A stretch of 64,000 nt of DNA from an uncultured bacterium (GTDB lineage: Bacteria; Pseudomonadota; Gammaproteobacteria; Burkholderiales; SG8-39): assembly GCA_965233165.1 (NCBI GenBank), contig CBDDRX010000041.1, forward strand, positions 232 through 64,231, written 5' to 3'. The position numbers were made by a program, and so were the translations under genes. The notes beneath the pieces were generated by a model that had not been told where the DNA came from, did not search any database, and saw only the letters and a list, made by a program, of their open reading frames with translations. This document shows, one piece after another, positions 17,043 to 62,597 of this stretch; the stretch's first letter is position 1, and every line of letters begins with the position of its first letter.

Positions 17043-18106
17043 GCGGCGGCGCGCTCGCGCGCGGCCAGGCGCGCGGCGATGGCAGCGAAGGCGTCCGGCG
17101 TGTCCACCGGGAGGCGCTCGGCCTCGGCGAGGGCGGGGAAGTTCCGCGTCGAGCTCTTGCGGTAGGCGGGGTCATAGTGCTCGAGGAGCAGGCGCGAGAC
17201 GAACTCGCGCCAGGCGCCGGCTTCGCCGAGCGCCTTCCATTGGGCGATCTTCTCGCGCCCGTGCAGCGCCACCAGGCAGTCGAGCTGCGCGTCGAGCGCC
17301 GCGCGGTCCTGCGTGAAATGCCGGTATTCGTCGAGGAGCAGCGTGACCCGGGTCTCCACGCCCGCCTCGAGAGCGACGCAGCGCGATGCGCGCATGCGCG
17401 AGATCAGGCCATCGGGGACCTGCAGCTGGCCGATCTTCTTCGACTCGCCTTCGACAAAGACCGTGCGCCGCGGGTCGAGCCGGGTGAGCGCGTGCAGCAG
17501 CCGGGATTCGAACATCTTCTGCGAAGGCTGCGGCCGGTCCGGAAGGTTGCCGAGGACCGAGCCGCGGTGCGCAGCGAGCCCCTCCAGGTCGAGCACCTGG
17601 GCGCCGGCCCTCGCGTGGGCGGCGAGAAGGCGGCTCTTGCCGCTGCCGGTCGGCCCGTGCACCACGGCGTAGGAGAACCGGCCGGGAATCCGGTCGAGCT
17701 CGGCGACCACCCAGCGGCGGTAGGCGCGGTAGCCGCCTTCGAGCGTCGCGGCCCCCCAGCCGATCTCCTGCAGGATGTGCGCCATCGCCCCGGAGCGCTT
17801 GCCCCCGCGCCAGCAGTAGACGAGCGGGCGCCAGTCCTTCGGCTTGTCGCGGAAGTGGCGCTCCACGTGCGCGGCGACGTTGCGCGCGACCAGCGCGCCG
17901 CCGACCTTCTTCGCCTCGAAAGCCGAGACCTGCTTGTAAAGCGTGCCGACCTCGGCGCGCTCGCTGTCGCTCAGGACCGGCGTCGACAGTGCATCCGGAA
18001 CGTGGTCTTCCGCGTATTCGGAAGGCGTGCGCGCGTCGAGGATCGCGTCGAATCCCGTAAGGATCGCGGCATCCATCGCGACCGAGTGCCTGGACGGCTT
18101 GTCCAT
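17039..18106 (-). CDS. selU: tRNA 2-selenouridine synthase
   Basis: 355 aa. The N-terminal rhodanese domain has the active-site VYCWRGGKRSG, followed by the P-loop GPTGSGKS. Confidence 0.9.
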   Translation of the reverse strand: MDKPSRHSVAMDAAILTGFDAILDARTPSEYAEDHVPDALSTPVLSDSERAEVGTLYKQVSAFEAKKVGGALVARNVAAHVERHFRDKPKDWRPLVYCWRGGKRSGAMAHILQEIGWGAATLEGGYRAYRRWVVAELDRIPGRFSYAVVHGPTGSGKSRLLAAHARAGAQVLDLEGLAAHRGSVLGNLPDRPQPSQKMFESRLLHALTRLDPRRTVFVEGESKKIGQLQVPDGLISRMRASRCVALEAGVETRVTLLLDEYRHFTQDRAALDAQLDCLVALHGREKIAQWKALGEAGAWREFVSRLLLEHYDPAYRKSSTRNFPALAEAERLPVDTPDAFAAIAARLAARERAAA

Positions 18107-18417
18107 CTGCCCGGATTTTACGCTGCTCAGTTTCCGGCTCGCGCCAGCGTCGAAGTAGCCGCCTTGACAACAGGGAGTTCCTTCGGAGAGTCTTGAACGA
18201 TGCTGATTCTTGCCCGCCTCATCTCCGCGAGCTGCCGTTCGCTCGTGTCGATGCTCGGCACGGGCTGCGCGCGCAGAGGACGAGCAGGCCGCTCCGGAAG
18301 CCCGGACGACTTCACTGCGGCCGCCCGCACGATGGTCCTGCTTTCCTCTCCCGCCTTCCGTTTCACCCCGAACCCGTCCGTTTCCTCACCCATCCCATCT
18401 GGCAGGGAGGTACGTTC

Positions 18418-19497
18418 ATGCATCGCAGATCGTTCCTGAAGGTTTCTTCGATGGCCGCCGCGGCGGCCGCGCTGCCGTGGCGCGGGGCGCTCGCCGCCCC
18501 GATCGCCGGCTGGCGCAGCTACGAAGTGGTTTCCCGCGTCGAGATCCTCAAGCCGCGCGGCGTTTCCCGCGCCTGGATCCCGCTCCCGTCGGTGGACAAC
18601 GCCGAATGGCACAAGACGCTGGGCAGCAGCTGGACCGGCAACGCGGGCCGCACGCTGGTCGCGACCGACGGCAAGTACGGCGCGCAGATGCTCTACGCGG
18701 AATGGGCGGAAGGAACGGCCAGCCCGGTCCTGGAGGTGACGAGCCGCGTCTCCACGCAGGACCGCGACATCGACGTGACCCGCGCGCGCTCCGGCGCGGA
18801 GCTCTCGGCGCCCGAGCGCGTCTTCTATACCTCGGCGACCGACTACATCCCGACCGACGGGATCGTGCGCGACACGGCGCAGAAGGCGATCAAGGGCGCG
18901 CGCAGCGAGGTCGACAAGGCGCGCGCGATCTACGAATGGGTGGTGGACAACACGTTCCGCGATCCCAAGACGCGCGGCTGCGGCTGGGGCGACATCAAGG
19001 CAATGCTCGAGACCGGGAACCTCGGCGGCAAGTGCGGCGACCTGAACGCGCTGTTCGTCGGGCTCGCGCGCTCGGTCGGCGTTCCGGCGCGCGATGTGTA
19101 CGGGCTGCGCGTCGCCCCCTCCGAGTACGGCTACAAGAGCCTCGGCGTAGGCTCGAGCAACGTGACGCGCGCGCAGCACTGCCGCGCGGAATTCTTCGCG
19201 CAGGGGATCGGCTGGGTTCCCGTCGATCCGGCGGACGTGCGCAAGGTGGTGCTCGAGGAGCCGCCGGCCAACCTGCCGCTGGGCGACCCCAAGGTGCAGG
19301 CGGCGCGCCAGCGCCTGTTCGGCAACTGGGAGATGAACTGGCTCGCCTACAACATGGGCCACGACATCAAGCTGCCCAACTCCAGCGGGCCGAAGATCCC
19401 CTATCTCATGTACATCAACGCGGAATCCGGCGGCGAGGCGCGCGACCCGCTCGACCCGGACTCGCTCAAGTACACGATCACGGCGAAGCCTGCCTGA
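18418..19497 (+). CDS. Tat-exported transglutaminase-like cysteine peptidase family protein
   Basis: ATG 18418 is preceded by GGAGG at 7-nt spacing. Twin-arginine signal MHRRSFLKVSSMAAAAAA. Cys-His-Asp core: GKCGDLNALF, HCRAEFF, VPVDPAD. Confidence 0.8.
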   Translation: MHRRSFLKVSSMAAAAAALPWRGALAAPIAGWRSYEVVSRVEILKPRGVSRAWIPLPSVDNAEWHKTLGSSWTGNAGRTLVATDGKYGAQMLYAEWAEGTASPVLEVTSRVSTQDRDIDVTRARSGAELSAPERVFYTSATDYIPTDGIVRDTAQKAIKGARSEVDKARAIYEWVVDNTFRDPKTRGCGWGDIKAMLETGNLGGKCGDLNALFVGLARSVGVPARDVYGLRVAPSEYGYKSLGVGSSNVTRAQHCRAEFFAQGIGWVPVDPADVRKVVLEEPPANLPLGDPKVQAARQRLFGNWEMNWLAYNMGHDIKLPNSSGPKIPYLMYINAESGGEARDPLDPDSLKYTITAKPA

Positions 19498-20422
19498 GCG
19501 CCGCACGGACCGCGCCGAGGAGCGCGCGGCGCTCCTCGGCCGGGGCGAACAGACGCCTGCGCCCGCGCATCGCCGCCTTCAGCGTCCGGTAGAAGGCGTG
19601 GTCGCGGCTTCGCGCCATCAGCGCGGCAAGCGCTTCGTGATCGCCGGTGCGGAAGTAGGCCGGCCAGGATGCGCCGAGCATGCCGAGGTTGCCCGACATG
19701 CGCGAGGCGAGCACCGGCACGCCGATGCGCGCGGCCTCCGCGATGACGTTCGCCCCGCCCTCCATTCTCGAGCTCACCACCAGCACATGGCTTGCGGCGA
19801 TCCACCGCAGGGCCCGCCCGTGCGGCAGGCTGCCGAGCCAGCGATAGCGCGGCTCGCGGCGCATCCACGCGCGGGCCGTCCTTTCGTGCGCCGCGTCCAG
19901 GGCGGCGCCGATGTGCACGAGCTCGATCGCGTCGTCGTTCACGAGCTCCAGGGCAAGCGCGGCGCGGAACGGATCCTTCACCTCGCGCAGATGGCCCACC
20001 ACGACGATGCGGAACCGCCCGCGCGGCGGCACGTGGCGCAGCTTCGTGTCGCTCGACTGGTAGACGACGTGCGCCTTTGCGCGCATCCCGGCCGGGAGCC
20101 GCCGGAGCGCGTCTTCCTGGAGCACGATCAGGCGGTCGGCGAGCCGCAGCGAGCGGCGCGCCTCGGCGCTGCCGGGCAGGTCGGCGTACAGGTCGGTTCC
20201 CGTCAGCGCCACGATGCGCGGGCCGGCGAACCGGACGATCGAATCGTGGCTGCGGCGCGCATGCAGCGCGAGCAATGCATCGCATTTCCCGCCCTGCCAG
20301 GAAAGGGCGACGCGGCAATCGAAGCCGGCGCCGCGCAGCATGCCCGCCCAGCGCGCCGCGGTATGGAGGTTGCCGTTGCGCGTTCCCGGGCGCGCCGGCG
20401 TGACGATCGAGATGCGCGGCAT
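19478..20422 (-). CDS. senB: SenB-like glycosyltransferase (selenosugar synthase candidate)
   Basis: 314 aa, compact GT-B-like (SSRMEGGANVIAEAARIGVPVLAS). It is divergent from and 20 nt away from the EgtB-like/SelD pair. The assignment rests mainly on context and remembered family features. Confidence 0.75.
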   Translation of the reverse strand: MPRISIVTPARPGTRNGNLHTAARWAGMLRGAGFDCRVALSWQGGKCDALLALHARRSHDSIVRFAGPRIVALTGTDLYADLPGSAEARRSLRLADRLIVLQEDALRRLPAGMRAKAHVVYQSSDTKLRHVPPRGRFRIVVVGHLREVKDPFRAALALELVNDDAIELVHIGAALDAAHERTARAWMRREPRYRWLGSLPHGRALRWIAASHVLVVSSRMEGGANVIAEAARIGVPVLASRMSGNLGMLGASWPAYFRTGDHEALAALMARSRDHAFYRTLKAAMRGRRRLFAPAEERRALLGAVRAALRQASP

Positions 20423-51244: not shown

Positions 51245-52024
51245 TCAGCGCCGCAGCGTCGGCAAGCATGCGTGCCTTTCTCCCGCTACCGCGACCACCT
51301 GTACGGGCACACCGTAGAGACGCTGCAGGGTTTCGGCGCGCACGACCTCGCGCGGTGGGCCGGCCTCCAGCACCCGGCCTTCCCCGAGCAGGAGCGCGCG
51401 CTGCGCGCCGATGAAGGCGTGGTCGGGATCATGCGAGGAGAAGAGGATCGCGATGCCGGAGGCGGCGAGGGCGAGGATGCGCTCGAGCACGCGCACCTGG
51501 TTGCCGAAGTCGAGGCTCGCCGTCGGCTCGTCCATGACGAGGAGCTTCGGCTGCTGGGCGAGCGCGCGCGCGACGAGGGCGAGCTGGCGCTCGCCGCCGG
51601 AGACTTCGTTGATCGGCCGCTCCGCCAGGCCGGCGATCCCGAGCGATTCCAGCGCCTCGTCCGCCAGGCGCCGGTCCGCCGCTCCCGGGACGGCAAACGC
51701 GCCGATGCGCGCCGTGCGCCCCATCAGGACGAACTGGCGCAGCGTGTAGGCGAAATAGGCGGTGTGGCCCTGCGGAACATAGCCCGCGAGGCGCGCGACT
51801 TCGCCTCGCGACAGGGACGCGAGCGCCGAGCCGTCGAGCAGCACCTTTCCGCCCTGGGCCGGCAGCAGCCCGAGCAGCGTGCGGAAGAGGGTCGTCTTTC
51901 CGCCCCCGTTGGGCCCGAGCACGCACATCACCTCGCCGGCGCCCAGGGCGAGCGAGACGTCCCGCCCGACCGTACGGCCGGCAAAGCCGAAGGAGACGCC
52001 GCGGGCTTCCAACACCGGCGTCAC
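51245..52024 (-). CDS. ABC transporter ATP-binding protein (type II importer, FecE/BtuD/MolC-like)
   Basis: 259 aa. Walker A GPNGGGKTT, signature VSGGERQ, Walker B LLVMDEPT. 4-nt overlap with the permease gene. Confidence 0.88.
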   Translation of the reverse strand: MTPVLEARGVSFGFAGRTVGRDVSLALGAGEVMCVLGPNGGGKTTLFRTLLGLLPAQGGKVLLDGSALASLSRGEVARLAGYVPQGHTAYFAYTLRQFVLMGRTARIGAFAVPGAADRRLADEALESLGIAGLAERPINEVSGGERQLALVARALAQQPKLLVMDEPTASLDFGNQVRVLERILALAASGIAILFSSHDPDHAFIGAQRALLLGEGRVLEAGPPREVVRAETLQRLYGVPVQVVAVAGERHACLPTLRR

Positions 52025-53025
52025 CAGCGTCTCCGCGACAGGGCGAACAGCCAGAGGAAGAACGGCGTGCCGATGAACGCAGTCAGGACGCCGGGCGGGA
52101 TCTCGATCGTCGCCGCCGTGCGGCCGAGCGTATCGACGCCGAGGAGAAAAGCGGCGCCGAGCAGCATCGAAAGCGGGAGCAGGCGGCCGAAGTCCGGGCC
52201 GACCAGCAGGCGAGCCGCATGCGGAATGAGCAGGCCGACCCAGCCGATGATGCCGCTGATCGCGACCGCGGTGGCGGTCATCAGCGTCGCGGCTGCGATC
52301 ACGAGCGCACGCAGCCGTGCCGTGTTCACGCCGAGGGCCCGCGCCTCGTCGTCGGGCAGCGCGAGCAGGTTCATGCGCCAGCGCAAGAGCACCATCGGCG
52401 CCAGGCCGAGGAACGCGAGCGGCGCGGCGGAAGCAAGGTCACTGGGCGTCACGGAGGCCAGGCTGCCGAGCAGCCAGTACGTGATGGCCGGAAGCTGGTT
52501 GTACGGGTCGGCAAGGTACTTGAGCAGGGCGATGACCGACCCCAGCAGCGTGCCGATCACCACGCCGGTGAGGACGAGGGCGAGCAGCGGGTCGTGCCCG
52601 CGCATCCGCCCGCCGACCGCGTATACAAGGCTCACCGCCGCGAGGCCGCCAGCGAACGCGAAGAGCTGGATGAAGTACACGTTCAGGGAAAGGAAGATCG
52701 CGAGCACCGCGCCGAGCGCGGCCCCGCTCGAGACGCCCAGGATATCGGGCGAGACGAGCGGATTGCGGAACATCCCCTGGTAGGCGGTGCCGGCGGCGGC
52801 GAGCGCGGCGCCGACGAGCAGCGCCGCGATCACCCGCGGGCCGCGCACCTGCAGGATCACCGTCTCCACGTTCGCCGGCAAGGCGCTCGGGCTGCCGGTC
52901 AGCTTCGCCCCAAGGAGGGTCGCAATCTCGCCCAGCGAGACCGGATACCGGCCCACCGCGAACGCGATCGCCGTCAGCGCGACGAGCGCCCCGATCGCGA
53001 TGACATACGCCGGCGCGAGCCTCAT
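52021..53025 (-). CDS. FecCD-family ABC permease (type II importer)
   Basis: 334 aa from ATG 53025. Motifs typical of BtuC/FecCD: NPLVSPDILGVSSGAALG and IGWVGLLIPHAAR. Confidence 0.88.
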   Translation of the reverse strand: MRLAPAYVIAIGALVALTAIAFAVGRYPVSLGEIATLLGAKLTGSPSALPANVETVILQVRGPRVIAALLVGAALAAAGTAYQGMFRNPLVSPDILGVSSGAALGAVLAIFLSLNVYFIQLFAFAGGLAAVSLVYAVGGRMRGHDPLLALVLTGVVIGTLLGSVIALLKYLADPYNQLPAITYWLLGSLASVTPSDLASAAPLAFLGLAPMVLLRWRMNLLALPDDEARALGVNTARLRALVIAAATLMTATAVAISGIIGWVGLLIPHAARLLVGPDFGRLLPLSMLLGAAFLLGVDTLGRTAATIEIPPGVLTAFIGTPFFLWLFALSRRRW

Positions 53026-54011
53026 CACGGCAGCACGCCTGCCTCGCCAAGCAGCGCGTCGAGCTGCGCCGCCGTGGGCTCGCGGTGATAGAAGCGGCGG
53101 TGGAATTCTGCCACCTTCGTCCGCAGGTCGACGGCGAACGCCTGCGGGTAGAGGACCTTTCCCGCCCACCATGCGCCGAGCAGGCGATTCGCGCCCGGCG
53201 GGAAATCGAACCAGCCGAACGGCAGGTGGGGCGAGAGGAAGACGCGCTTCTTCTCGACCGCGGAAGTCGCGCGCCAGAGCGGATGCTCCCAGGCGAGCTT
53301 CCAGAAGTTCGGATCCGTGGTGAGGATCACCTCCGGGTTCCACAGCAGCACCTGCTCCGCCGACACGACGGCCAGCCCGGCCCGCACCCCGGCGGCGACG
53401 TTGTGCGCGCCCAGCAGCTCGAGCACCTCGACGTTGATCGACCCCCGGCCGCCGGTCTGCAGCCCCGCCGGGCCGCGCCCGTAGTACACCCGCGGCCTCG
53501 CCGCCTCGAGCACGCGCGCCGCGCGCGCCTTGATGTCCGCCAGCTCGCCCTCGAACCATTGCGCGAGGGCTTCGGCGCTCTTCTCCTCGCCCATCAGGCG
53601 CCCCAGGCCGCGCAGAGTTGCGGGCGTTGCATCGAGCCTGCCGTCGAAGAGCGCGTAGGGGATCTTCGTCTGCTTCTGCACCTGCGTCGCAAGAGACGCG
53701 AGGCTCGGCGAGGTGGAGCCGACGTCGACGATGAGGTCAGCCTTCGCGCGCAGCACGACTTCCACGTTGGCGGTGCTGCCGCGACCGGTCAGGCGGCCGA
53801 GCTCCGGAAGTACCGCGTACTTTTCCGGGACGAAGGCGGCCTCGTTCGGTCGAAACGCACGCGTCCATCCGAGCAGCTTGTCGGGGGCGATCGCGAAGAC
53901 CAGAACGCTCGCGGGCGGGCCGGCGGCGTAGACGCGCTCGGTCTTGCGCGGCGCCTGGCCCAGAACGCCGGACGTTGCGAGCAGCAGGGCGAGGGCGCAA
54001 GCCGCTTTCAT
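53025..54011 (-). CDS. periplasmic substrate-binding protein (class III, BtuF/FhuD/MolA-like)
   Basis: 328 aa with a signal peptide. The stop overlaps the permease ATG and the start overlaps the regulator stop (both ATGA). Substrate not assignable from sequence alone. Confidence 0.78.
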   Translation of the reverse strand: MKAACALALLLATSGVLGQAPRKTERVYAAGPPASVLVFAIAPDKLLGWTRAFRPNEAAFVPEKYAVLPELGRLTGRGSTANVEVVLRAKADLIVDVGSTSPSLASLATQVQKQTKIPYALFDGRLDATPATLRGLGRLMGEEKSAEALAQWFEGELADIKARAARVLEAARPRVYYGRGPAGLQTGGRGSINVEVLELLGAHNVAAGVRAGLAVVSAEQVLLWNPEVILTTDPNFWKLAWEHPLWRATSAVEKKRVFLSPHLPFGWFDFPPGANRLLGAWWAGKVLYPQAFAVDLRTKVAEFHRRFYHREPTAAQLDALLGEAGVLP

Positions 54012-55042
54012 GGGCGAATGCCTTCACGGCTCTGCTCCACCCAGGTCAGCGCCGCGTCCAGAGGATGGCGCCGTCCGGCCTGCGCTGCCGAGTAGCCCGG
54101 CAGCTTCTCGATCACGGCCGCCAGTTCGGGGGTGCGCAAAGTCTCCAGCAGTGCGGCCACGGCCGGCAGCTGCAGCGAAGCCTTGGGGCAGGCGATGAAA
54201 TAGCGTTCCGTCGCGAGCTGGACGAAGGAGAGCTTATTCTTTGCGGCTTCCGCACGCAGGCCGAAGCCCGCGTCGGCACGGCCGCGCGCGACTTCCACGG
54301 CGACCGAGGCATCCCGCCCGCCTCGACCCTCCGTGGCGGGATTCTGCCGGTGGATGAAGCGCACGCCGGGCCGGGCGAGGTCGTGCACATTGCGGATCCG
54401 CGAACCGGGCCGCACGATCAGGCCCTGCTCGCGGCGCACGAAGTGGACAAGCACGTGCTTGCGTGAATCGAGCCACTTGCCGAGGGAGGCAGCGGCGGCC
54501 GCGGCGCGCGGGAGGGCGTCGGCCACGTGGAAGCCGGCGAGGTCGCACTCACCGCGCGCGAGCGCGGCGAGGCAGTCGTCCGAGCCCTTGAAGACGACGT
54601 CGAGCTCCAGGCGCGTCGCGCAAAGCTCAGGCAGGGCGGCGATCGCCAGGTCGTGGCTTGCATGCAGGGAGAGCCGCGGGCGCTTGCCGGGCAGCGCGTC
54701 TGCGAGCAGCAGCGGGATCTCGCCCCGCAGTTGCTCGAAGGGCTCGGCGAGCGCGCTGCGCACCCGTGCATCGGCCTGCACCACGCGGCGGCCGAGGTCG
54801 CTGAGGCGGGCGCCTCGACCCTGCTGCATCTCGACCAGGGCGGTGCCGAAGATCTTCGCTGCGTCGCCCAGGACCCCCCAGGCGAAGCGATAGGACACCC
54901 CGGCGGCGCGCGCGGCCTCCCGGAGGGAGCTCGACTGCTCGAGCTCGCGCAGCAGGTGCAGGAGCGCCCGCGCGCGCTCCCGGGGGAGTCCCGGTGCCGC
55001 GAGCCAGCCTGCATCGAACGCGATCTCGACCTTGTTATGCAC
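54008..55042 (-). CDS. ModE-N-type HTH regulator fused to a periplasmic-binding-protein-like (PBP_like) sensor domain
   Basis: 344 aa, GTG start. The N-terminal SLREAARAAGVSYRFAWGVLGD is the ModE-type winged helix. The C-terminal ~230 aa resembles an oxyanion-binding PBP fold. It is the first gene of the type II ABC operon. Confidence 0.72.
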   Translation of the reverse strand: MHNKVEIAFDAGWLAAPGLPRERARALLHLLRELEQSSSLREAARAAGVSYRFAWGVLGDAAKIFGTALVEMQQGRGARLSDLGRRVVQADARVRSALAEPFEQLRGEIPLLLADALPGKRPRLSLHASHDLAIAALPELCATRLELDVVFKGSDDCLAALARGECDLAGFHVADALPRAAAAAASLGKWLDSRKHVLVHFVRREQGLIVRPGSRIRNVHDLARPGVRFIHRQNPATEGRGGRDASVAVEVARGRADAGFGLRAEAAKNKLSFVQLATERYFIACPKASLQLPAVAALLETLRTPELAAVIEKLPGYSAAQAGRRHPLDAALTWVEQSREGIRP

Positions 55043-55098: not shown

Positions 55099-55122
55099 AG
55101 TTATGAACATAGGTGCATAACT
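55099..55122. promoter_or_regulatory. candidate operator: AGTTATG-N10-CATAACT perfect inverted repeat
   Basis: It lies in the 70-nt divergent region between the ModE-N/PBP regulator and tupB. Its spacer contains the tupB GTG. The half-sites resemble the GTTAT/ATAAC cores of ModE operators. A third GTTATG lies at 55034-55039. Confidence 0.45.
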
Positions 55123-55790
55123 TTCCCGGCATCCTGGCCGAGCCCGAGCTCTGGCACATCGTCGCCCTCAGCCTGCAAGTGAGCCTGTCCGCCGTCGGCA
55201 TCGCCATGGCCCTGGGGCTGCCGCTCGGCGCCGCCCTCGCCGTCGGGCGTTTCCCCGGGCGCGACGCGCTCGTGGTCATCCTCAACGCCCTGATGGGGCT
55301 GCCGCCGGTCGTGGTCGGGCTGGTGGTCTACCTCCTGCTCTCGCGCGCGGGCCCGCTCGGTGATCTCGGCCTGCTCTTCACGCCCGGAGCGATGGTGATC
55401 GCGCAGACGATCCTGATCCTGCCGATCGCCGCCGCGCTGTGCCGGCAGGCGGTCGAGGACGCGTGGCGCGAGTACGAAGAGCAGCTGCGCTCCCTGGGCG
55501 TCGACGGGCTTCGCGCCGCGCTGACGGTGCTGTGGGATATCCGGTTTTCGCTCCTGACCGCGGTTCTGGCCGGACTCGGGCGTGCAAGCGCAGAAGTCGG
55601 GGCGGTGATGATCGTGGGCGGGAACATCGACGGCGTGACGCGCGTCATGACGACGACTATCGCGCTGGAGACCTCCAAGGGGGACCTGCCGCTTGCGCTG
55701 GGGCTGGGAATCGTCCTGATCGGCGTGGTGCTGGCGCTCAATGCCGCAGCGCACCTGGTCAAGGAAGCCGCGCAGCGGAGGTACGGATGA
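55113..55790 (+). CDS. tupB: tungstate ABC transporter permease
   Basis: 225 aa, GTG start. 5-6 TM segments and a MetI-type EAA-like loop (EEQLRSLGVDGLRAALTVLWD). Gene order is tupB-tupC-tupA. Confidence 0.8.
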   Translation: MHNFPGILAEPELWHIVALSLQVSLSAVGIAMALGLPLGAALAVGRFPGRDALVVILNALMGLPPVVVGLVVYLLLSRAGPLGDLGLLFTPGAMVIAQTILILPIAAALCRQAVEDAWREYEEQLRSLGVDGLRAALTVLWDIRFSLLTAVLAGLGRASAEVGAVMIVGGNIDGVTRVMTTTIALETSKGDLPLALGLGIVLIGVVLALNAAAHLVKEAAQRRYG

Positions 55791-56491
55791 TCCTGCCGCT
55801 GCGGCTCGAGGAAGTGTCTTTCGCCGCAGGCGGGCGCCTGGTGATCCATCCGCTGTCGCTGGAAGTCGCGGCGGGCCCGGCGACGATCATCCTCGGCGCG
55901 AACGGGGCGGGCAAAAGCGTGCTCATGCGCCTGATGCACGGGCTGCTGCCGCCGACGGCGGGCCGGGTCACGTGGCGCGAGGCGGGATCGCGGCACACCC
56001 AGGCCATGGTCTTCCAGCGCCCGGTGATGCTGCGCCGCTCGGCGCTGGCGAACGTCCAGTACGCGCTCAAGGCGGCCGGCGTCGCCGGGCCGGAACGTGC
56101 GCGCGCCGCGCTCGTTGCCCTCGAAGAGGTCGGGCTGCGTCCCCGCGCCCTGCAGCCGGCCCGCGCGCTCTCGGGCGGCGAGCAGCAGCGCCTCGCCCTC
56201 GCGCGCGCGTGGGCACTGCATCCGGAGATCCTGTTCCTCGACGAGCCCACCGCGAGCCTGGACCCGACCGCGACGCGCGAGATCGAGTCCGTCATCCGCG
56301 CGTTCGATGCCGCCGGCACGAAAATCGTCATGGCGACCCACAACCTCGCCCAGGCGCGGCGCCTGGGCGACGAGGTCGTCTTCCTGCACCAGGGACGACT
56401 GGTCGAGCGCGCCCCCGTCGATCGGTTTTTCGCCAGCCCGCAGTCCGCCGAGGCGGCTGCTTTCATCAAAGGAGAACTGCCATGGGTCTGA
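55787..56491 (+). CDS. tupC: tungstate ABC transporter ATP-binding protein
   Basis: 234 aa. The ATG overlaps the tupB stop (ATGA). Walker A GANGAGKS, signature LSGGEQQR, Walker B LFLDEPT. Confidence 0.85.
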   Translation: MILPLRLEEVSFAAGGRLVIHPLSLEVAAGPATIILGANGAGKSVLMRLMHGLLPPTAGRVTWREAGSRHTQAMVFQRPVMLRRSALANVQYALKAAGVAGPERARAALVALEEVGLRPRALQPARALSGGEQQRLALARAWALHPEILFLDEPTASLDPTATREIESVIRAFDAAGTKIVMATHNLAQARRLGDEVVFLHQGRLVERAPVDRFFASPQSAEAAAFIKGELPWV

Positions 56492-57294
56492 TCATCCGTG
56501 TCCTCGTCCTGCTCGCGCTTGCTGCGCCCGCGCACGCGCACGCGCAGCGATTCATTACGGTGGCGTCCACCACGTCGACCGAGCAGTCCGGGCTGTTCAA
56601 GCACCTGTTGCCGGCGTTCGAGAAGAAGGCCGGGATCCAGGTGCGGGTGGTCGCGCTTGGCACCGGCCAGTCTCTGGACATGGGCAAGCGGGGCGACGCC
56701 GACGTCGTCTTCGTGCACGCGAAGGCGCTGGAGGAAAAGTTCGTCGCCGACGGCTTCGGCGTGAAGCGCTTCGAGGTGATGTACAACGACTTCGTCCTCG
56801 TCGGCCCGAAGTCGGACCCGGCGAAAGTGGGGGGGACGAAGAACATCGTCGCCGCGCTGCAGAAAATCAAGGCAGCGCAGGCGCCCTTCGCCTCTCGCGG
56901 CGACAAGAGCGGAACCCACTTCGCCGAGCTGCAGCTCTGGCAGGCCGCCGGCATCGACATCGCCAAGGGCAAGGGCCCGTGGTATCGCGACACAGGCTCC
57001 GGCATGGGGCCGACGCTGAACACCGCTTCGGGGATGAACGCCTACGCGCTCACAGACCGCGGCACCTGGCTCTCGTTCAGGAACCGCGGCGAGCTCGTCA
57101 TCGCCGTAGAGGGCGACCAGCGCCTGTTCAACCAGTACGGCGTCATCCTCGTGAATCCGGCGAAGCATCCGCACGTGAAGCAGGCGGACGGGCAGGCGTT
57201 CATCGACTGGCTCGTTTCCGCTGAAGGACAAGCGGCGATCGCCGCGTATAAGATCGGCGGCGAGCAGCTTTTCTTCCCCAACGCGAAGAGATGA
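56482..57294 (+). CDS. tupA: tungstate-binding periplasmic protein
   Basis: 270 aa. AAAGGAGA SD and a signal peptide. Motifs characteristic of TupA: TVASTTSTEQSGL, and SRGDKSGTH. Confidence 0.85.
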   Translation: MGLIIRVLVLLALAAPAHAHAQRFITVASTTSTEQSGLFKHLLPAFEKKAGIQVRVVALGTGQSLDMGKRGDADVVFVHAKALEEKFVADGFGVKRFEVMYNDFVLVGPKSDPAKVGGTKNIVAALQKIKAAQAPFASRGDKSGTHFAELQLWQAAGIDIAKGKGPWYRDTGSGMGPTLNTASGMNAYALTDRGTWLSFRNRGELVIAVEGDQRLFNQYGVILVNPAKHPHVKQADGQAFIDWLVSAEGQAAIAAYKIGGEQLFFPNAKR

Positions 57295-57298
57295 ACGA

Positions 57299-57640
57299 AT
57301 GCGCTACCGAGGCCTGACGCTGCGCGTGCTCGGTGCGGCTGGCCCGGCGATGGGGCCCGGCAAGGCGGACTTGATCGAGAGAATCGGCCAGACCGGGTCG
57401 ATTTCGGCTGCGGCGCGGGGTATGGGCATGTCCTACCGGCGCGCCTGGCAGCTCGTCGAGGCGCTGAACCGAACCTTCCGGGAGCCGGTCGTCACCACGG
57501 CGATCGGCGGTGCCCGCGGCGGCGGGGCGCAGGTCACCGACTTTGGCAGGAAGCTCGTCGCCGAGTATCGCCGGATGGAGGCGAAAGCGTCGGCGGCGAT
57601 CGCCGGCGACCTCAAGCGGTACGCTCGCTATATTCCGTGA
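57299..57640 (+). CDS. ModE N-terminal-domain-only (winged-helix) protein
   Basis: 113 aa. GSISAAARGMGMSYRRAWQLVEALN is the ModE-type HTH. There are no Mop/TOBE domains. It starts 5 nt after tupA. Confidence 0.75.
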   Translation: MRYRGLTLRVLGAAGPAMGPGKADLIERIGQTGSISAAARGMGMSYRRAWQLVEALNRTFREPVVTTAIGGARGGGAQVTDFGRKLVAEYRRMEAKASAAIAGDLKRYARYIP

Positions 57641-57652
57641 TATATAGCGCTG

Positions 57653-58399
57653 GTGGATCAGGTCGTCGTGGCGCTGCTGGCGGCGGGGATGCTCGTCGCC
57701 GCGTTTGGATATGCGTCCGTCGGACATGGCGGCGCATCGGCCTATATCGCCGCGATGGCGCTGGCGGGGATCGCACCGCAGGAAATGCGGCCCATCGCAC
57801 TGCTGCTGAACATCTTAGTCTCCTCGATCGCCGCGTGGAAGTTCCGTAGCGCCGGGCACTTCCGCTGGGAGCTGTTCTGGCCCTTCGCCGCGGTGTCGAT
57901 TCCCATGGCCTATCTCGGCGGCGCCCTGACGCTCCCGGGGCAGGCGTACAAGGCGCTGATCGGCGTCGTGCTCCTCTATGCCGCCTTGCAGCTTTGGCGA
58001 AGCGGAAGCCGGGGAGAGGAAATGCGGGCCGTGCGGTCACCGCGACTTGGGGTCGCGATGGGGATCGGCGCCGGGCTGGGGTTGCTGTCCGGCCTCACGG
58101 GGGTGGGCGGAGGCATCTTTCTCAGTCCGCTGCTCCTCATGCTGGGCTGGGCGGGGACGAAGCAGACCTCCGCGATCTCGGCACCCTTCATCCTCGTGAA
58201 CTCGATCGCCGGGCTCGCCGCCCATTTCATCAGCAAGGGCACGGCGTTGCCCGCATACGTGCCGGTCCTGGCCGGTGCAGTCGTCGTGGGCGGCTGGCTC
58301 GGCGCCGAGTATGGAGCGCGGCGCCTCGCCAATCCGCTGGTTCGCAGAGTGCTCGCCGTGGTGCTGGCGCTGGCCGGCGGGAAGATGATCCTGGTCTAG
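57653..58399 (+). CDS. TSUP (TauE/SafE, DUF81) family anion permease
   Basis: 248 aa, GTG start, about 8 TM segments. Duplicated G-rich motifs: GHGGAS and GVGGGIFLSPLL. Confidence 0.8.
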   Translation: MDQVVVALLAAGMLVAAFGYASVGHGGASAYIAAMALAGIAPQEMRPIALLLNILVSSIAAWKFRSAGHFRWELFWPFAAVSIPMAYLGGALTLPGQAYKALIGVVLLYAALQLWRSGSRGEEMRAVRSPRLGVAMGIGAGLGLLSGLTGVGGGIFLSPLLLMLGWAGTKQTSAISAPFILVNSIAGLAAHFISKGTALPAYVPVLAGAVVVGGWLGAEYGARRLANPLVRRVLAVVLALAGGKMILV

Positions 58400-58461
58400 G
58401 GAATATCCGGACTGCTGTAATGTTGGCGCCTCGGACACGACTACATACCGGACGGAACGCG

Positions 58462-58797
58462 ATGAGCAATTATTTCGAATCGGAGGACCTGAAGAAGTTC
58501 GGCGAGATCGGGCAGCACGCCAAGGGGCTCGCCGATGACTTCTTCAAGTACTACGGCCACGTCACCGGGACCGACGGGGCACTGACGAAGCGCGAGAAGG
58601 CCTTGATTGCGCTCGCGGTTTCGCATGCGCAGAAATGCCCTTACTGCATCGACGCCTATACGACGCAGTGCCTCGAGACCGGGGCGAATCCGGAGCAGAT
58701 GATGGAGGCGGTGCACGTCGCCGCCGTGATGCAGGCAGGCATCACGCTGGTGCATTCCGTGCAGATGCAGAACCACCTGAAGAAGCTGGTGCTTTGA
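58462..58797 (+). CDS. AhpD/carboxymuconolactone-decarboxylase-like protein of the ArsS-associated 'peroxidase-like' type
   Basis: 111 aa. LTKREKALIALAVSHAQKCPYCIDAY carries the CxxC of the AhpD fold. The stop overlaps the arsS TTG start. Confidence 0.78.
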   Translation: MSNYFESEDLKKFGEIGQHAKGLADDFFKYYGHVTGTDGALTKREKALIALAVSHAQKCPYCIDAYTTQCLETGANPEQMMEAVHVAAVMQAGITLVHSVQMQNHLKKLVL

Positions 58798-59816
58798 GCG
58801 CCGCTGCACCGGTACGCGTCTTCCGCGAGCGCGCGAAGCACGACTTCGAGGGCGAGCTGCGCAGGCGCGGCATCGCGCTGCCGCCGCTCGCCGTCGAGAC
58901 GCTGCAGGTCAACATCACGAAGCTGTGCAACCAGGTCTGCCGCCACTGCCACGTCGACGCCTCGCCCTCCCGCACGGAGATGCTCTCGCCTGAAGGAATC
59001 CAGAAGTGCCTCGAGATCCTCGCCCGCCAGCCGCGGCTGAAGAAGCTCGACATCACCGGCGGCGCGCCCGAGCTGCATCCAGGCTTCGACGGCTTCGTGG
59101 AGCGGGCGGTCGCGCTCGGCAAGCACGTCATGGTCCGACACAACCTGACGGTGCAGCTCGACGGGCATCCCGTGACCAGGGAAGGGAAGGAGTATCTTCC
59201 GGAGTTCTTCGCCCGCAACCGCATCGAGGTGATCTCGTCGCTGCCGTACTACCAGGAGTTCTTCACCGACGCGCAGCGCGGCTCCGGCGTATTCAGGAAG
59301 AGCATCGAGGCGCTGAAGCGCCTGAACGCCGTGGGCTACGGCGTTGACGGAAGCGGCCTGGTCCTCAACCTCATCTACAACCCGGTCGGCCCCTACCTGC
59401 CTGCGGCGCAGGCGGGCCTCGAGGCGGACTACAAGCGCAGCCTGCGCGAGGGCTTCGGGGTGGTCTTCAACGCCCTGCACACGATCACCAACATGCCGAT
59501 CAACCGCTTCCGGCTGCACCTGGAAAAGAGCGGGCAGTACGACGCGTACCTGGAAAAGCTCCACGCCGCGTTCAACCCGGCGGCGGCGGAAGGCGTGATG
59601 TGCCGCAGCCTGATCAGCGTCGGCCATGACGGCCGCATCTACGACTGCGACTTCAACCAGATGCTGGAGATGGATGCCGTCGACGCGCGCGGCCGGCCGC
59701 TCTCGATCTTCGACTTCGACCTCGAGAAGGTGATGCGGCGCTCCATCCGCTTCGAGGCGCACTGCTTCGGCTGCACGGCCGGCGCCGGAAGCTCCTGCGG
59801 AGGGGCCACCGCCTAG
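58794..59816 (+). CDS. arsS: ArsS-type radical SAM / Cys-rich domain protein (arsenosugar-biosynthesis family), Cys form
   Basis: 340 aa. TTG 58794 overlaps the upstream stop (TTGA). Radical SAM CNQVCRHCH. C-terminal Cys-rich tail CRSLISVGHDGRIYDCDFN...HCFGCTAGAGSSCGG. No in-frame TGA. Confidence 0.82.
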   Translation: MSAAAPVRVFRERAKHDFEGELRRRGIALPPLAVETLQVNITKLCNQVCRHCHVDASPSRTEMLSPEGIQKCLEILARQPRLKKLDITGGAPELHPGFDGFVERAVALGKHVMVRHNLTVQLDGHPVTREGKEYLPEFFARNRIEVISSLPYYQEFFTDAQRGSGVFRKSIEALKRLNAVGYGVDGSGLVLNLIYNPVGPYLPAAQAGLEADYKRSLREGFGVVFNALHTITNMPINRFRLHLEKSGQYDAYLEKLHAAFNPAAAEGVMCRSLISVGHDGRIYDCDFNQMLEMDAVDARGRPLSIFDFDLEKVMRRSIRFEAHCFGCTAGAGSSCGGATA

Positions 59817-59830
59817 CTACAATCGGCGGC

Positions 59831-60328
59831 ATGAAGATCTTCGGCTTCGCCGGCTGGTCCGGAAGCGGCAAGACCACGCTGGTCGAGAAGCTCATCCCGC
59901 GCTTCGTCCAGGGCGGGCTGCGCGTGTCGCTGGTCAAGCACGCGCATCACAACTTCGACGTCGATACGCCCGGGAAGGACTCGTACCGGCATCGCCAGGC
60001 GGGCGCGAGCGAGATCCTGGTGACCTCGTCGCGGCGCTGGGTGCTGATGCACGAGCTGCGCGGCGCGCAGGAGCCGTCGTTCGACGAGCAGGTGAAGCGC
60101 CTGTCTCCCTGCGACCTGCTTCTCGTCGAGGGCTTCAAGTTCGCGCCGATCCCGAAGCTCGAAGTGTGGCGCAAGGAAACCGGCGAGGCGCTGCTCCACC
60201 CGAACGATCCGCACATCGTCGCGGTCGCCACCGATGCGAAGATCGAGGCGAAGCTGCCGGTCCTCGACCTCAACGACGATGCCGCCATCGCGCGCTTCAT
60301 CCTGAAGCACCTGAAGCTCGATGAATAA
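59831..60328 (+). CDS. mobB: molybdopterin-guanine dinucleotide biosynthesis adaptor protein
   Basis: 165 aa. Motifs: P-loop GWSGSGKTT, VKHAHH, and EGFK. Confidence 0.88.
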   Translation: MKIFGFAGWSGSGKTTLVEKLIPRFVQGGLRVSLVKHAHHNFDVDTPGKDSYRHRQAGASEILVTSSRRWVLMHELRGAQEPSFDEQVKRLSPCDLLLVEGFKFAPIPKLEVWRKETGEALLHPNDPHIVAVATDAKIEAKLPVLDLNDDAAIARFILKHLKLDE

Positions 60329-61523
60329 GGGCCTGCTCTCGGTCGACGAGGCGCTCGAGCTCCTGCTTGCGGGCGCGCGGCCGGTAAAGGAGGTCGAGGA
60401 GGTGCCGGCGCTCGAGGCGACGAACCGCGTGCTCGCCCGCGCGCAGCGCTCGACGATGGACGTCCCGCCGATGGACAACAGCGCCATGGACGGGTACGCC
60501 GTCCGCGTTTCGGACCTGCAGAAAAGCCCTTCCCTGAAGGTCTCCCAGCGCATCATGGCCGGCTCGGTGGGAAAACCGCTCGCGCCGGACACGGCAGCGC
60601 GCATCTTTACGGGCGCACCGATTCCCCCGGGGGCCGACGCAGTGGTCATGCAGGAGCACTGTGAAGCCGATTTTGATTCTGTCTCGGTAAAGAGATTCCC
60701 CAGGGCAGGAGAATGGGTCCGCCTGGCCGCCAGCGACGTGAAGAAGGGCGGCGAGATCCTTCCGGCGGGAAAGCGCCTGCTTCCGCAGGACACCGGGCTC
60801 GCGGCCTCGGTGGGGATTGCTTCCCTGCCGGTGTTTAGGCGGGTTCGCCTTGGCCTGTTCTTTACGGGCGACGAGCTGGTGATGCCCGGCGAGCCGCTCG
60901 CGCCGGGGCGGATCTACAACTCGAACCGCTTCACCCTGCGCGGGCTCGCCGGCATGTTCGGCTGCGAGGTGCGGGACTACGGCATCGTTCCCGACACGCT
61001 GGAGGCCACGCGTGCAGTGCTGCGCAGGGCGGCTGCCGAGTGCGACGTGATCGTGACCTCGGGCGGCGTGTCCGTCGGCGACGCGGATTTCGTGAAGCCG
61101 GCGGTGGAGGCCGAAGGCGATCTCCTCATGTGGAAGATCGCGATGAAGCCCGGCCGTCCGCTCGCCTTCGGCAAGGTGGGGCAGGCGGCGTTCATCGGCC
61201 TGCCCGGAAATCCGGTCTCCAGCTTCGTGACCTTCCTGATCTTCGTGCGCCCGTTCCTGCTCAGGACGCAGGGGGTCGCCGATCCGCAGCCCAGGGCGAT
61301 CGCCGCGCGGGCGGATTTCGACTGGCCCGAGCCTGACGCGAGGCGCGAGTTCCTGCGCGTAAAATGGAACGCGCAGGGCGGGCTCGACCTGTACCCGACG
61401 CAGGATTCCGCGGTGCTGACCTCCACGGCCTGGGCCGACGGCCTGGTCGACAATCCGGCGCAGCAGGCGATCCGCAAGGGCGACAGCGTGCGCTTCCTGC
61501 CGTACTCGGAGCTGTACCGGTGA
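60321..61523 (+). CDS. moeA: molybdopterin molybdenumtransferase (paralogue 2)
   Basis: 400 aa. 8-nt overlap with mobB. Motifs: DNSAMDGYAV, TSGGVSVGDADF, KIAMKPGRPLAFG, GLPGNPVS. Confidence 0.9.
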   Translation: MNKGLLSVDEALELLLAGARPVKEVEEVPALEATNRVLARAQRSTMDVPPMDNSAMDGYAVRVSDLQKSPSLKVSQRIMAGSVGKPLAPDTAARIFTGAPIPPGADAVVMQEHCEADFDSVSVKRFPRAGEWVRLAASDVKKGGEILPAGKRLLPQDTGLAASVGIASLPVFRRVRLGLFFTGDELVMPGEPLAPGRIYNSNRFTLRGLAGMFGCEVRDYGIVPDTLEATRAVLRRAAAECDVIVTSGGVSVGDADFVKPAVEAEGDLLMWKIAMKPGRPLAFGKVGQAAFIGLPGNPVSSFVTFLIFVRPFLLRTQGVADPQPRAIAARADFDWPEPDARREFLRVKWNAQGGLDLYPTQDSAVLTSTAWADGLVDNPAQQAIRKGDSVRFLPYSELYR

Positions 61524-61780
61524 TGAAAGTCAAAGTGCTGTTCTTCGCCTCGCTGAAGGAGCGCCTGGGCAAGGATGCCGAGGAGATCGAGCTTCCGCCC
61601 GGGGTCTCGACGGTCGCTGCGCTGCGTGCGCACCTCGGCGCACGCGGCGGCGCCTACGCGGAAGCGTTCGCGGAGAAGAAGCTCGTGAAGGCCGCGGTGA
61701 ACCAGGACATGGCGCCCGCGACGGCGTCCATCAAGGCGGGGGACGAGGTGGCGTTCTTTCCGCCGGTGACCGGCGGATGA
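61523..61780 (+). CDS. moaD: molybdopterin synthase sulfur-carrier subunit
   Basis: 85 aa. The ATG overlaps the moeA stop (TGATG). Ubiquitin-like, ending FFPPVTGG. Confidence 0.85.
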   Translation: MKVKVLFFASLKERLGKDAEEIELPPGVSTVAALRAHLGARGGAYAEAFAEKKLVKAAVNQDMAPATASIKAGDEVAFFPPVTGG

Positions 61781-62214
61781 AAGTCTCGGTCCAGCGGGAA
61801 GACTTCGACCTGTCTTGCGTCGTGAACGAGCTGCGCAAGGACCCGAAAGTCGGCGCGGTCGCGAGCTTCGTGGGCGTGGTGCGCGAAGTGGCGATGACGC
61901 TCGAGCACTATCCTGGGATGACGGAGAAGGCCCTGCAGAAGATCGTCGCGGAGGCGAAGGGACGCTGGCAAATCCTCGACTGCACCGTGATCCACCGCTA
62001 CGGCCCGCTGCAGCCGACCGACCAGATCGTGCTGGTGGCGGTGGCTTCCGCGCACCGCGGCGATGCCTTCGCCGCCTGCGAGTTCATCATGGACTACCTG
62101 AAGACCCGCGCGCCCTTCTGGAAGAAGGAGGCGGGCAAGGGCTGGGTGGAAGCGCGCGCTTCCGACGACACGGCGGCCGAGCGCTGGCAGGACCCGGAGC
62201 GCAGGACCGGCTGA
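61777..62214 (+). CDS. moaE: molybdopterin synthase catalytic subunit
   Basis: 145 aa. ATGA overlap with moaD. Motifs: GAVASFVGVVR, HRGDAF, FWKKE. Confidence 0.9.
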   Translation: MKVSVQREDFDLSCVVNELRKDPKVGAVASFVGVVREVAMTLEHYPGMTEKALQKIVAEAKGRWQILDCTVIHRYGPLQPTDQIVLVAVASAHRGDAFAACEFIMDYLKTRAPFWKKEAGKGWVEARASDDTAAERWQDPERRTG

Positions 62215-62597
62215 TGCCGCCGTTCTCCGCGCTGGCCGCAGTGGCCGTCGGCGCGGTGCTCGGCGCCTGGCTGCGATGGCTGCTGGTGGCGAAGCTCAAT
62301 CCCGTGCTGCCCTTTCTCCCCATGGGCACGCTCGTCGCGAACATCGGCGGCGGGCTCATGGTCGGCCTCGCGGTCGCCTGGCTGGCCGCGCAGCCGCAGC
62401 TGCACCCGACCGTGCGCCTTTTCGTCATCACCGGGTTCCTGGGCGCATTGACGACGTTCTCGAGCTTCTCCGCCGAGTCCCTGGAGCTGCTCTACGCCGG
62501 GCGCTATGGATGGGCGCTTGGCCATTCAGCGCTTCATGTCTTCGGGTCCCTCGCCGCGGCGACGGCGGGGTTTGCCGGCTACCGCGCGCTCGCCTAA
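62214..62597 (+). CDS. crcB: fluoride channel CrcB/Fluc
   Basis: 127 aa. The ATG overlaps the moaE stop (TGATG). 4 TM segments. Motifs: [10 protein letters not shown] and [11 protein letters not shown]. Confidence 0.85.

Follow-up and report, generated by a model that had tools for sequence, protein, structure and literature searches.

An AhpD-like/ArsS radical SAM gene pair without ArsM, embedded in a tungstate and molybdenum-cofactor locus of an uncultured Burkholderiales bacterium

An AhpD-ArsS gene pair lies within a tungstate and molybdenum-cofactor locus

We analysed a 64,000-nucleotide stretch of DNA from an uncultured bacterium (Gammaproteobacteria; Burkholderiales), called the window throughout, which carries a gene for an ArsS-family radical S-adenosylmethionine (SAM) enzyme directly after a gene for an AhpD-like protein with a CxxC motif. 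The window belongs to a metagenome-assembled genome (MAG) of 3.35 Mb that is 93% complete, and its G+C content is about 70%. Among named relatives, the closest are MAGs of uncultured Burkholderiales. Loci, genomes and contigs used for comparison carry our own L, G and C numbers.

An earlier note, made from the letters of the window, had described a TSUP permease, an AhpD-like protein and ArsS as three consecutive genes embedded in a tungsten/molybdenum (W/Mo) neighbourhood. Performing profile searches, we find the three genes at the same coordinates and in the families so named. The pair indeed sits in a W/Mo locus, with tup genes upstream and the molybdenum-cofactor (Moco) genes mobB, moeA, moaD and moaE downstream (Table 1). 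The motif CNQVCRHC and the Cys-rich tail HCFGCTAGAGSSCGG were both found in ArsS, and KCPYC was found in the AhpD-like protein. The overlap of the two genes at TTGA is real as well, the TTG start of ArsS occupying positions 58794-58796 and the TGA stop of the AhpD-like gene positions 58795-58797.

Table 1 Features of the window and of contig C109 of the same genome
Feature	Position	Strand	Size and evidence
TSUP/TauE-family permease	57653-58399	+	248 aa, GTG start; PF01925 TauE 126 bits, full-length match
AhpD-like CxxC protein, family TIGR04169	58462-58797	+	111 aa, KCPYC; PF02627 also matches
ArsS-family radical SAM enzyme	58794-59816	+	340 aa from TTG; TIGR04167, PF04055, PF12345/DUF3641
AhpD-ArsS insert with both spacers	58400-59830	+	1.43 kb; window junctions compared with those of L124 and L126
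tupB	55113-55790	+	tungstate-type ABC uptake; synteny with L041, L124-L131
tupC	55787-56491	+	tungstate-type ABC uptake; synteny with L041, L124-L131
tupA	56482-57294	+	NF041772 236 bits, below the 400-bit cut-off; synteny with L041, L124-L131
ModE-N-only helix-turn-helix (HTH) protein	57299-57640	+	113 aa; TIGR00637 84.5 bits, below the 98.5-bit cut-off
mobB	59831-60328	+	TIGR00176 166.6 bits, cut-off 76
moeA	60321-61523	+	Pfam annotation of orthologues in relatives
moaD	61523-61780	+	Pfam annotation of orthologues in relatives
moaE	61777-62214	+	Pfam annotation of orthologues in relatives
crcB, start overlapping moaE stop	62214-62597	+	follows moaE in the window
ModE-N/PBP-like regulator, divergent operon	54008-55042	-	NCBIfam and Pfam matches
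Peripla_BP_2 binding protein, divergent operon	53025-54011	-	NCBIfam and Pfam matches
FecCD permease, divergent operon	52021-53025	-	NCBIfam and Pfam matches
ABC ATPase, divergent operon	51245-52024	-	NCBIfam and Pfam matches
DUF547 gene	contig C109, 90-866 (L121)
TIGR04283 glycosyltransferase	contig C109, 863-1525		262.8 bits, cut-off 182
TIGR04282/DUF2064 glycosyltransferase	contig C109, 1503-2129		194.4 bits, cut-off 134

ArsS is a single-copy gene in a genome-wide scan and scores 408 bits against TIGR04167 (cut-off 300). Its radical SAM motif CX3CX2C is formed by C45-x3-C49-x2-C52, and its C-terminal DUF3641 domain matches PF12345 at 177 bits. Counting as near-invariant every position with a conservation of 93% or more across 213 other family members, ArsS keeps 87 of 90, the three differences being conservative, and all eight conserved Cys are retained (three in the radical SAM motif and five others). 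The AhpD-like protein scores 166.5 bits against TIGR04169 (cut-off 120) and its gene stands directly upstream of the TIGR04167 gene with a 4-nt overlap. The junction of the two genes reads TTGA or GTGA in eight relatives; therefore, the TTG start and translational coupling are credible. The pair is thus a bona fide, self-contained, translationally coupled TIGR04169/TIGR04167 two-gene module. A search of the PDB returned no ArsS-family structure, the matches being generic radical SAM cores and, for the partner, AhpD/CMD folds.

We considered a functional shift in ArsS and rejected it. The single clade-level change at a near-invariant position, G46T, is common to the AhpD-only sister clade and to the ArsM-linked relatives L044 and L132.

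Comparing the window with eight syntenic relatives, we obtained dN/dS values of 0.18-0.29 for ArsS and 0.04-0.16 for the AhpD-like protein, against 0.13-0.37 for the neighbouring MobB, MoeA and MoaE; these figures (by NG86) are rough, dS being near saturation. The dN of ArsS (0.14-0.19) is about equal to that of MoeA (0.14-0.17) and to that of MobB. The pair is inherited vertically under purifying selection, with the dN expected for co-inheritance with the Moco genes.

The genome carries no ArsM

The earlier note had found no arsM beside the pair, and this holds for its whole neighbourhood. It had also claimed that the window lacks any SAM-dependent methyltransferase, which stands as far as the ArsM model NF008823 reaches. 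Across the whole genome this model gave 20 weak class-I methyltransferase matches at E ≤ 1e-3, none of them on the window contig C41, and the best reached 61.8 bits against a cut-off of 263 bits. A purpose-built AsSugarArsM hidden Markov model (HMM), made from 19 neighbourhood ArsM sequences, scored 44 bits at best in the genome, its members scoring at least 368. NF038099 matched nothing in the genome at E ≤ 1e-12. A search with our alignment A1, which also covers a third ArsM type of 350-410 aa, matched nothing there at E ≤ 1e-20.

Six related ArsS-bearing Burkholderiales MAGs (G401-G405 and G407) likewise yielded no ArsM of the three types, so that MAG incompleteness is an unlikely explanation. 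They include carriers of the window-type pair, of a second pair type described below (L126) and of the AhpD-only sister clade. Among the related genomes searched for ArsM, only two Nevskiaceae genomes were positive.

To see the class as a whole, we took an even sample of 400 genomes, 189 of which have ArsS. ArsM-like genes occur in 93/189 ArsS-bearing and 23/211 ArsS-less genomes (odds ratio 7.9). At the thresholds used, 55 of the 189 ArsS-bearing genomes (29%) have no ArsM of any of the three types. An ArsS that occurs without ArsM is thus a real condition here and a common one elsewhere. Searching the literature on ArsS without ArsM, on DUF3641 and on TIGR04167, we found no paper that describes this arrangement.

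The third ArsM-like methyltransferase deserves mention for its own sake. It has 350-410 aa with a Cys-Cys motif at its end and directly follows ArsS in many genomes of the class; we saw it at the class-typical ArsS loci L015, L022, L028-L033, L035 and L036 (for example, L029, 2588-3706). It falls far below both NCBIfam ArsM cut-offs, scoring about 91-110 bits with NF038099 over positions 130-300 only. Surveys based on both NCBIfam ArsM models would miss it.

The pair is of a foreign type and was apparently inserted once upstream of mobB

Class-typical ArsS proteins score 440-476 bits, and no AhpD was found within 1.5 kb of the gene in 30 of 30 such loci. When 80 ArsS-bearing genomes of the class were checked for TIGR04169 (40 without and 40 with ArsM), only the window's genome had it. 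In trees, the window ArsS falls within a group of AhpD-linked sequences from Acidobacteriota, Bacteroidota and others, and in its nearest outgroups, L044 (Panacagrimonas) and L132, ArsM adjoins ArsS. The pair is therefore a foreign-type module, of a kind otherwise typical of Bacteroidota and Acidobacteriota, which has lost its ArsM link.

ArsS proteins 74-80% identical to the window's are always encoded directly upstream of mobB-moeA-moaD-moaE and downstream of the tup genes. At least 10 contigs, all from one family, carry AhpD-ArsS-mobB in this order. Loci with AhpD-ArsS-mobB-moeA-moaDE are L041, L127/L207 (L127 also in assemblies L207-L209), L128, L129, L130/L210 (L130 also in L210-L212), L131, L143, L245 (genome G572) and L252 (genome G479), the last two being of the same family. 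Upstream of mobB, the AhpD-ArsS pair seems to stem from a single ancestral insertion within one family of soil Burkholderiales.

The slot between tupA and AhpD is variable in content. It holds the ModE-N gene and TSUP in the window and in L128, TSUP and a metallophosphoesterase-like open reading frame (ORF) in L252 (by sequence reading, with no Pfam match), an AidB-like lactonase in L207, and in L245 a membrane protein of 383 aa resembling MOT1-type molybdate transporters (again by sequence reading, with no NCBIfam match). In L041 (6035-7596), which is the closest syntenic MAG, it holds arsR, an LMW-PTP arsC and an aquaglyceroporin gene, oriented as the Moco genes. In L129 it is empty.

The plus strand from tupB to crcB has no terminator-like site. 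A consensus scan of the TSUP/AhpD and ArsS/mobB spacers gave no promoter or terminator, a result of little weight at a G+C content of 70%. The AhpD-ArsS pair is probably co-transcribed with the tup and Moco genes.

The TSUP permease belongs to the operon and not to the ArsS module

The earlier note had proposed that the permease may import the substrate of ArsS or export its product. Our comparison contradicts this. The ArsS-less site is seen on long contigs in L124 and L125, which read tupB-tupC-tupA-ModE-N-TSUP-mobB-moeA-moaD-moaE-clpB. There the TSUP stop overlaps the mobB ATG by 4 nt (junction AAGATGATCTCCGTATGAAGAC). In the window, the TSUP stop is followed by a 62-nt spacer, AhpD-ArsS, a 14-nt spacer and the mobB ATG, and the pair is thus a clean 1.43-kb insert. 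The permease also keeps its neighbours in L126, L258 and L259, in which ArsS occupies another part of the locus.

We gathered 238 ArsS loci from genomic and metagenomic sources. Only three of them (the window, L128 and L252) have TSUP at a distance of 2.5 kb or less from ArsS, and AhpD is directly upstream of ArsS in 133. Orthologues of the permease number thousands at about 80% identity in metagenomes, including those of Burkholderiales. The presence of TSUP among the same neighbours in ArsS-less loci, and its rarity near ArsS, therefore make it a backbone gene of the Mo/W operon. A functional trio of TSUP, AhpD and ArsS was accordingly rejected: TSUP is not absent where ArsS is absent and seldom recurs beside ArsS. 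The permease should not be annotated here as an arsenical transporter.

The ModE-N-only gene adjoins TSUP also in L124-L126 and L128, and this pair is conserved between tupA and mobB (57299-58399 in the window; 5644-6747 in L124/L125). The full-length match to PF01925 likens the permease to other TSUP/TauE-SafE family members, from which it differs by its fixed place between the ModE-N gene and mobB. This fixed place in the tungstate/Moco operon suggests a transport role tied to Mo/W, or to the sulfur supply for the cofactor. To our knowledge, no such cofactor role has been described for the TSUP family.

A different AhpD-ArsS pair was recruited to the same locus

In L126 and L257-L260 the TSUP-mobB junction is uninterrupted, and a different AhpD-ArsS pair lies in the divergent operon of the same locus. 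The backbone genes of these relatives are 72-86% identical to the window's, and their ArsS and AhpD are 52% and 55% identical. The gene order is ModE-N/PBP-like regulator, (response regulator, transglutaminase-core protein), AhpD, ArsS, Peripla_BP_2, FecCD, ABC ATPase, (ChrB, ChrA). In L257 and L259 the ArsS stop overlaps the start of the binding-protein gene. The stretches concerned are L257, 6516-11858; L258, 6475-11885; L259, 6476-11848; and L126, 871-2270.

This second ArsS type is abundant in metagenomes and forms a distant branch of the family. An approximately unbiased (AU) test rejected a single clade for both types (delta lnL 190, p 8e-89), the tested group having been defined after a first tree had been seen. 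With the two types in separate clades at one locus, the association of AhpD-ArsS with the oxyanion-uptake/Moco locus arose at least twice. Both recruitments fall within one Burkholderiales family; outside that family, about 220 other ArsS loci have no Moco or tup neighbours.

Ahead of the second pair are genes for a stand-alone response regulator and for a transglutaminase-core protein of 364 aa, and behind it are the type II importer genes and chrB-chrA; the importer operon of the window (51245-55042, minus strand) is the same operon without these inserts. In L199, a sister of the L126 type, chrA directly follows ArsS.

Other genes of the arsenosugar set are encoded on another contig

The DUF547, TIGR04283 and TIGR04282 genes of this genome form an overlapping string on contig C109 (90-2129), unlinked to ArsS. 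Within the group, all 11 genomes with ArsS also have TIGR04283, and the three relatives without ArsS do not. Around the 80 closest ArsS loci in genome collections, the recurrent neighbours are AhpD-like genes (61), TIGR04282 (30), AsSugarArsM (20), TIGR04283 (18), purine nucleoside phosphorylase (12) and rhodanese (6). The neighbourhood-type purine nucleoside phosphorylase was not found in the window's genome (best score 73 bits, members scoring at least 478).

A cluster of arsR, arsC and an aquaglyceroporin gene lies on contig C102 (7145-8759). These ars genes are 55-59% identical to the copies in L041, and the region has a lower third-codon-position G+C (GC3) than its surroundings and may be an island.

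An arsenite oxidase was weighed as a reason for the link of arsenic with Moco and rejected, since AioA is absent from the window's genome. It was not found in G401-G404 or G572 either; among the genomes checked, only G421 has AioA, and G479 has an AioA-like match. The latter lies on contig C37 of G479 (L253), where a second, class-typical ArsS copy (4257-5123) is about 12 kb from the AioA-like molybdoenzyme gene (17246-19705; 450 bits, above the TIGR02693 cut-off).

A proposed ArsM-independent role of ArsS

So far, ArsS has been known only as the enzyme that follows ArsM when cyanobacteria make arsenosugars. Its published activity is a redox-neutral adenosylation that turns DMAs(III) into 5'-deoxy-5'-dimethylarsinoyl-adenosine (DDMAA) (PMC13598754). 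In Synechocystis, arsS shares a transcript with arsM, and ArsS acts on what ArsM produces (bioRxiv 10.1101/2022.09.23.509062). The NCBIfam name of TIGR04167 is 'arsenosugar biosynthesis radical SAM (seleno)protein ArsS'. The window ArsS shares with the enzyme of Synechocystis sp. PCC 6803 and other cyanobacteria the TIGR04167 family, the Radical_SAM and DUF3641 domains, the CX3CX2C motif and the five further Cys. Unlike Synechocystis ArsS, it has no arsM adjacent or elsewhere in the genome, lies close to tungstate-uptake and Moco genes of the same orientation, and has an AhpD-like partner, which is absent from 79 of the 80 ArsS-bearing class genomes checked.

The second system for comparison is the arsenosugar neighbourhood curated by NCBI in Bacteroidota and Acidobacteriota, which comprises TIGR04167, TIGR04169, TIGR04282, TIGR04283, AsSugarArsM (NF038099) and purine nucleoside phosphorylase. 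Here too AhpD is upstream of ArsS; TIGR04283, TIGR04282 and DUF547 are present; and ArsS nests in the AhpD-linked group. However, the set of the window's genome is split on two contigs, lacks ArsM and the neighbourhood-type purine nucleoside phosphorylase, and has its ArsS half in a Mo/W operon. This ArsM-less, Mo/W-embedded and twice-recruited arrangement departs from the known arsenosugar-type system; the gene pair itself belongs to a known family.

A lineage without ArsM that keeps ArsS under selection, the tracking of ArsS by TIGR04283, and the roughly three in ten class carriers without ArsM together argue for an ArsM-independent role. We infer from here on the substrate, the product, the role of the AhpD-like protein and any reason for the location. 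On balance we lean towards a system in which ArsS works independently of ArsM on a trivalent arsenical taken from outside the cell (environmental DMAs/MAs, or arsenite). The earlier note had offered, more speculatively, a different metalloid that ArsS may adenosylate; the retained 87 of 90 near-invariant positions and the arsR-arsC-aquaglyceroporin genes directly upstream in L041 point to arsenic as the substrate. As the genome has no ArsM, the arsenical would come from outside the cell, most likely as dimethyl- or monomethyl-arsenic, or would less likely be inorganic arsenite. ArsS would reductively cleave SAM and add the 5'-deoxyadenosyl radical to the trivalent arsenical, giving a 5'-deoxy-5'-arsinoyl-adenosine. 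The AhpD-like CxxC partner is probably a thiol redox or carrier helper. The DUF547, TIGR04283 and TIGR04282 proteins probably carry out later steps, further processing the nucleoside.

Several points weigh against this proposal. No dedicated importer or known methylarsenic resistance gene is tied to the pair in the window, and uptake of methylarsenic is assumed. The genome is a 161-contig MAG of 93% completeness. AhpD as a general stand-in for a missing ArsM was rejected, TIGR04169 being so rare among the ArsS-bearing genomes of the class. Finally, the proposal does not account for the independent arrival of two ArsS lineages at one Mo/W locus.

Were the substrate methylarsenic from the environment, these soil bacteria would act as sinks for toxic DMAs/MAs, which would bear on the speciation of arsenic in soils and in rice paddies. 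Surveys that take the arsS gene as an indicator of arsM-coupled arsenosugar production would in that case mis-assign it. We found no description of an ArsM-independent role in the literature searched.

The double recruitment suggests that the location itself may matter, and a functional link of the pair to Mo/W is possible, for example through detoxification of compounds taken up collaterally or through protection of the dithiolene cofactor. In a broader scheme that we put forward only tentatively, ArsS, the AhpD-like protein and TIGR04283/TIGR04282 would be an ArsM-independent system for an imported metalloid, recruited twice from two donor lineages into the same oxyanion-import/Mo-W locus as it processes or neutralises the cargo of the importer. 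This cargo might be arsenic, whether methylated or inorganic, or some other soft oxyanion that endangers the dithiolene cofactor.

It is unlikely that the pair is tied functionally to the oxyanion-uptake/Mo-W cofactor locus, with a position that is selected and not accidental. The pair might then process the cargo of the importers (type II ABC, Tup), or might shield molybdopterin synthesis from a thiol-reactive metalloid that enters on induction of the importer. Such a tie would fit the two phylogenetically separate AhpD-ArsS lineages in one locus, the rejection of one clade in the AU test, the overlap of ArsS with the binding-protein gene in L257 and L259, the short spacers and terminator-free plus strand from tupB to crcB, the ars genes in the same string in L041, and chrA directly after ArsS in L199. 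However, the roughly 220 loci outside the family have no such neighbours, and the ArsS-less L124 and L125 keep the whole locus. The slot upstream of AhpD takes unrelated cargo (the AidB-like lactonase and the metallophosphoesterase-like ORF), and the locus may just tolerate insertions. Moreover, the genome has no arsenite oxidase to explain a link of arsenic with Moco, and the group in the AU test was defined with a tree already in view. The double recruitment into one Mo/W locus is a testable lead for a link between arsenic and the molybdenum cofactor.

ArsS might instead use inorganic arsenite, or another non-methylated trivalent metalloid, directly and form a non-methylated adenosyl-arsenical; we regard this as rather improbable. 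ArsM is absent from seven genomes with either pair type or the AhpD-only clade and from about 29% of the ArsS carriers of the class, the system still co-occurs with TIGR04283, and the ars genes on C102 indicate that As(III) is handled in the cell. A precedent could be ArsL, another radical SAM enzyme, which is reported to act on trivalent inorganic As (bioRxiv 10.1101/2024.02.01.577332). However, the only ArsS activity that we found in the literature is that on DMAs(III) (PMC13598754), the nearest outgroups are ArsM-linked, and the clade has no invariant-site change of its own, G46T occurring also in L044 and L132.

The earlier note had preferred an arsM encoded elsewhere in the genome, with which the pair would make ordinary arsenosugar precursors. 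The association of ArsS with ArsM-like genes across the class would agree with it, and a gene could be missed in a 93%-complete MAG, but this idea is close to refuted by the low scores of both ArsM models (61.8 against 263 bits; 44 against at least 368), by the empty NF038099 and A1 searches and by the six further MAGs without arsM. Equally improbable is a frozen accident, that is, a hitch-hiking insert without current function in this lineage: the arrangement is limited to one family and occupies a slot with variable cargo, but purifying selection on the pair is as strong as on its Moco neighbours and much stronger for AhpD, all catalytic Cys and the start/stop coupling are conserved, and co-occurrence with the unlinked TIGR04283 gene is perfect.

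Further observations

In Burkholderiales family f285, the AhpD-linked ArsS neighbourhoods (L249-L251) have no functional theme. Contig C139 of the window's genome carries a second DUF547 homologue, and an ORF that resembles, by eye, a fusion of a DedA/TVP38 protein with a pyridine-nucleotide-disulfide oxidoreductase. The metallophosphoesterase-like ORF found beside AhpD in L252 has a homologue on C139 as well. The adjacency of moaE and crcB is not seen in L124-L126; it recurs in L207-L209, in L131 and, with a short gap, in L252.

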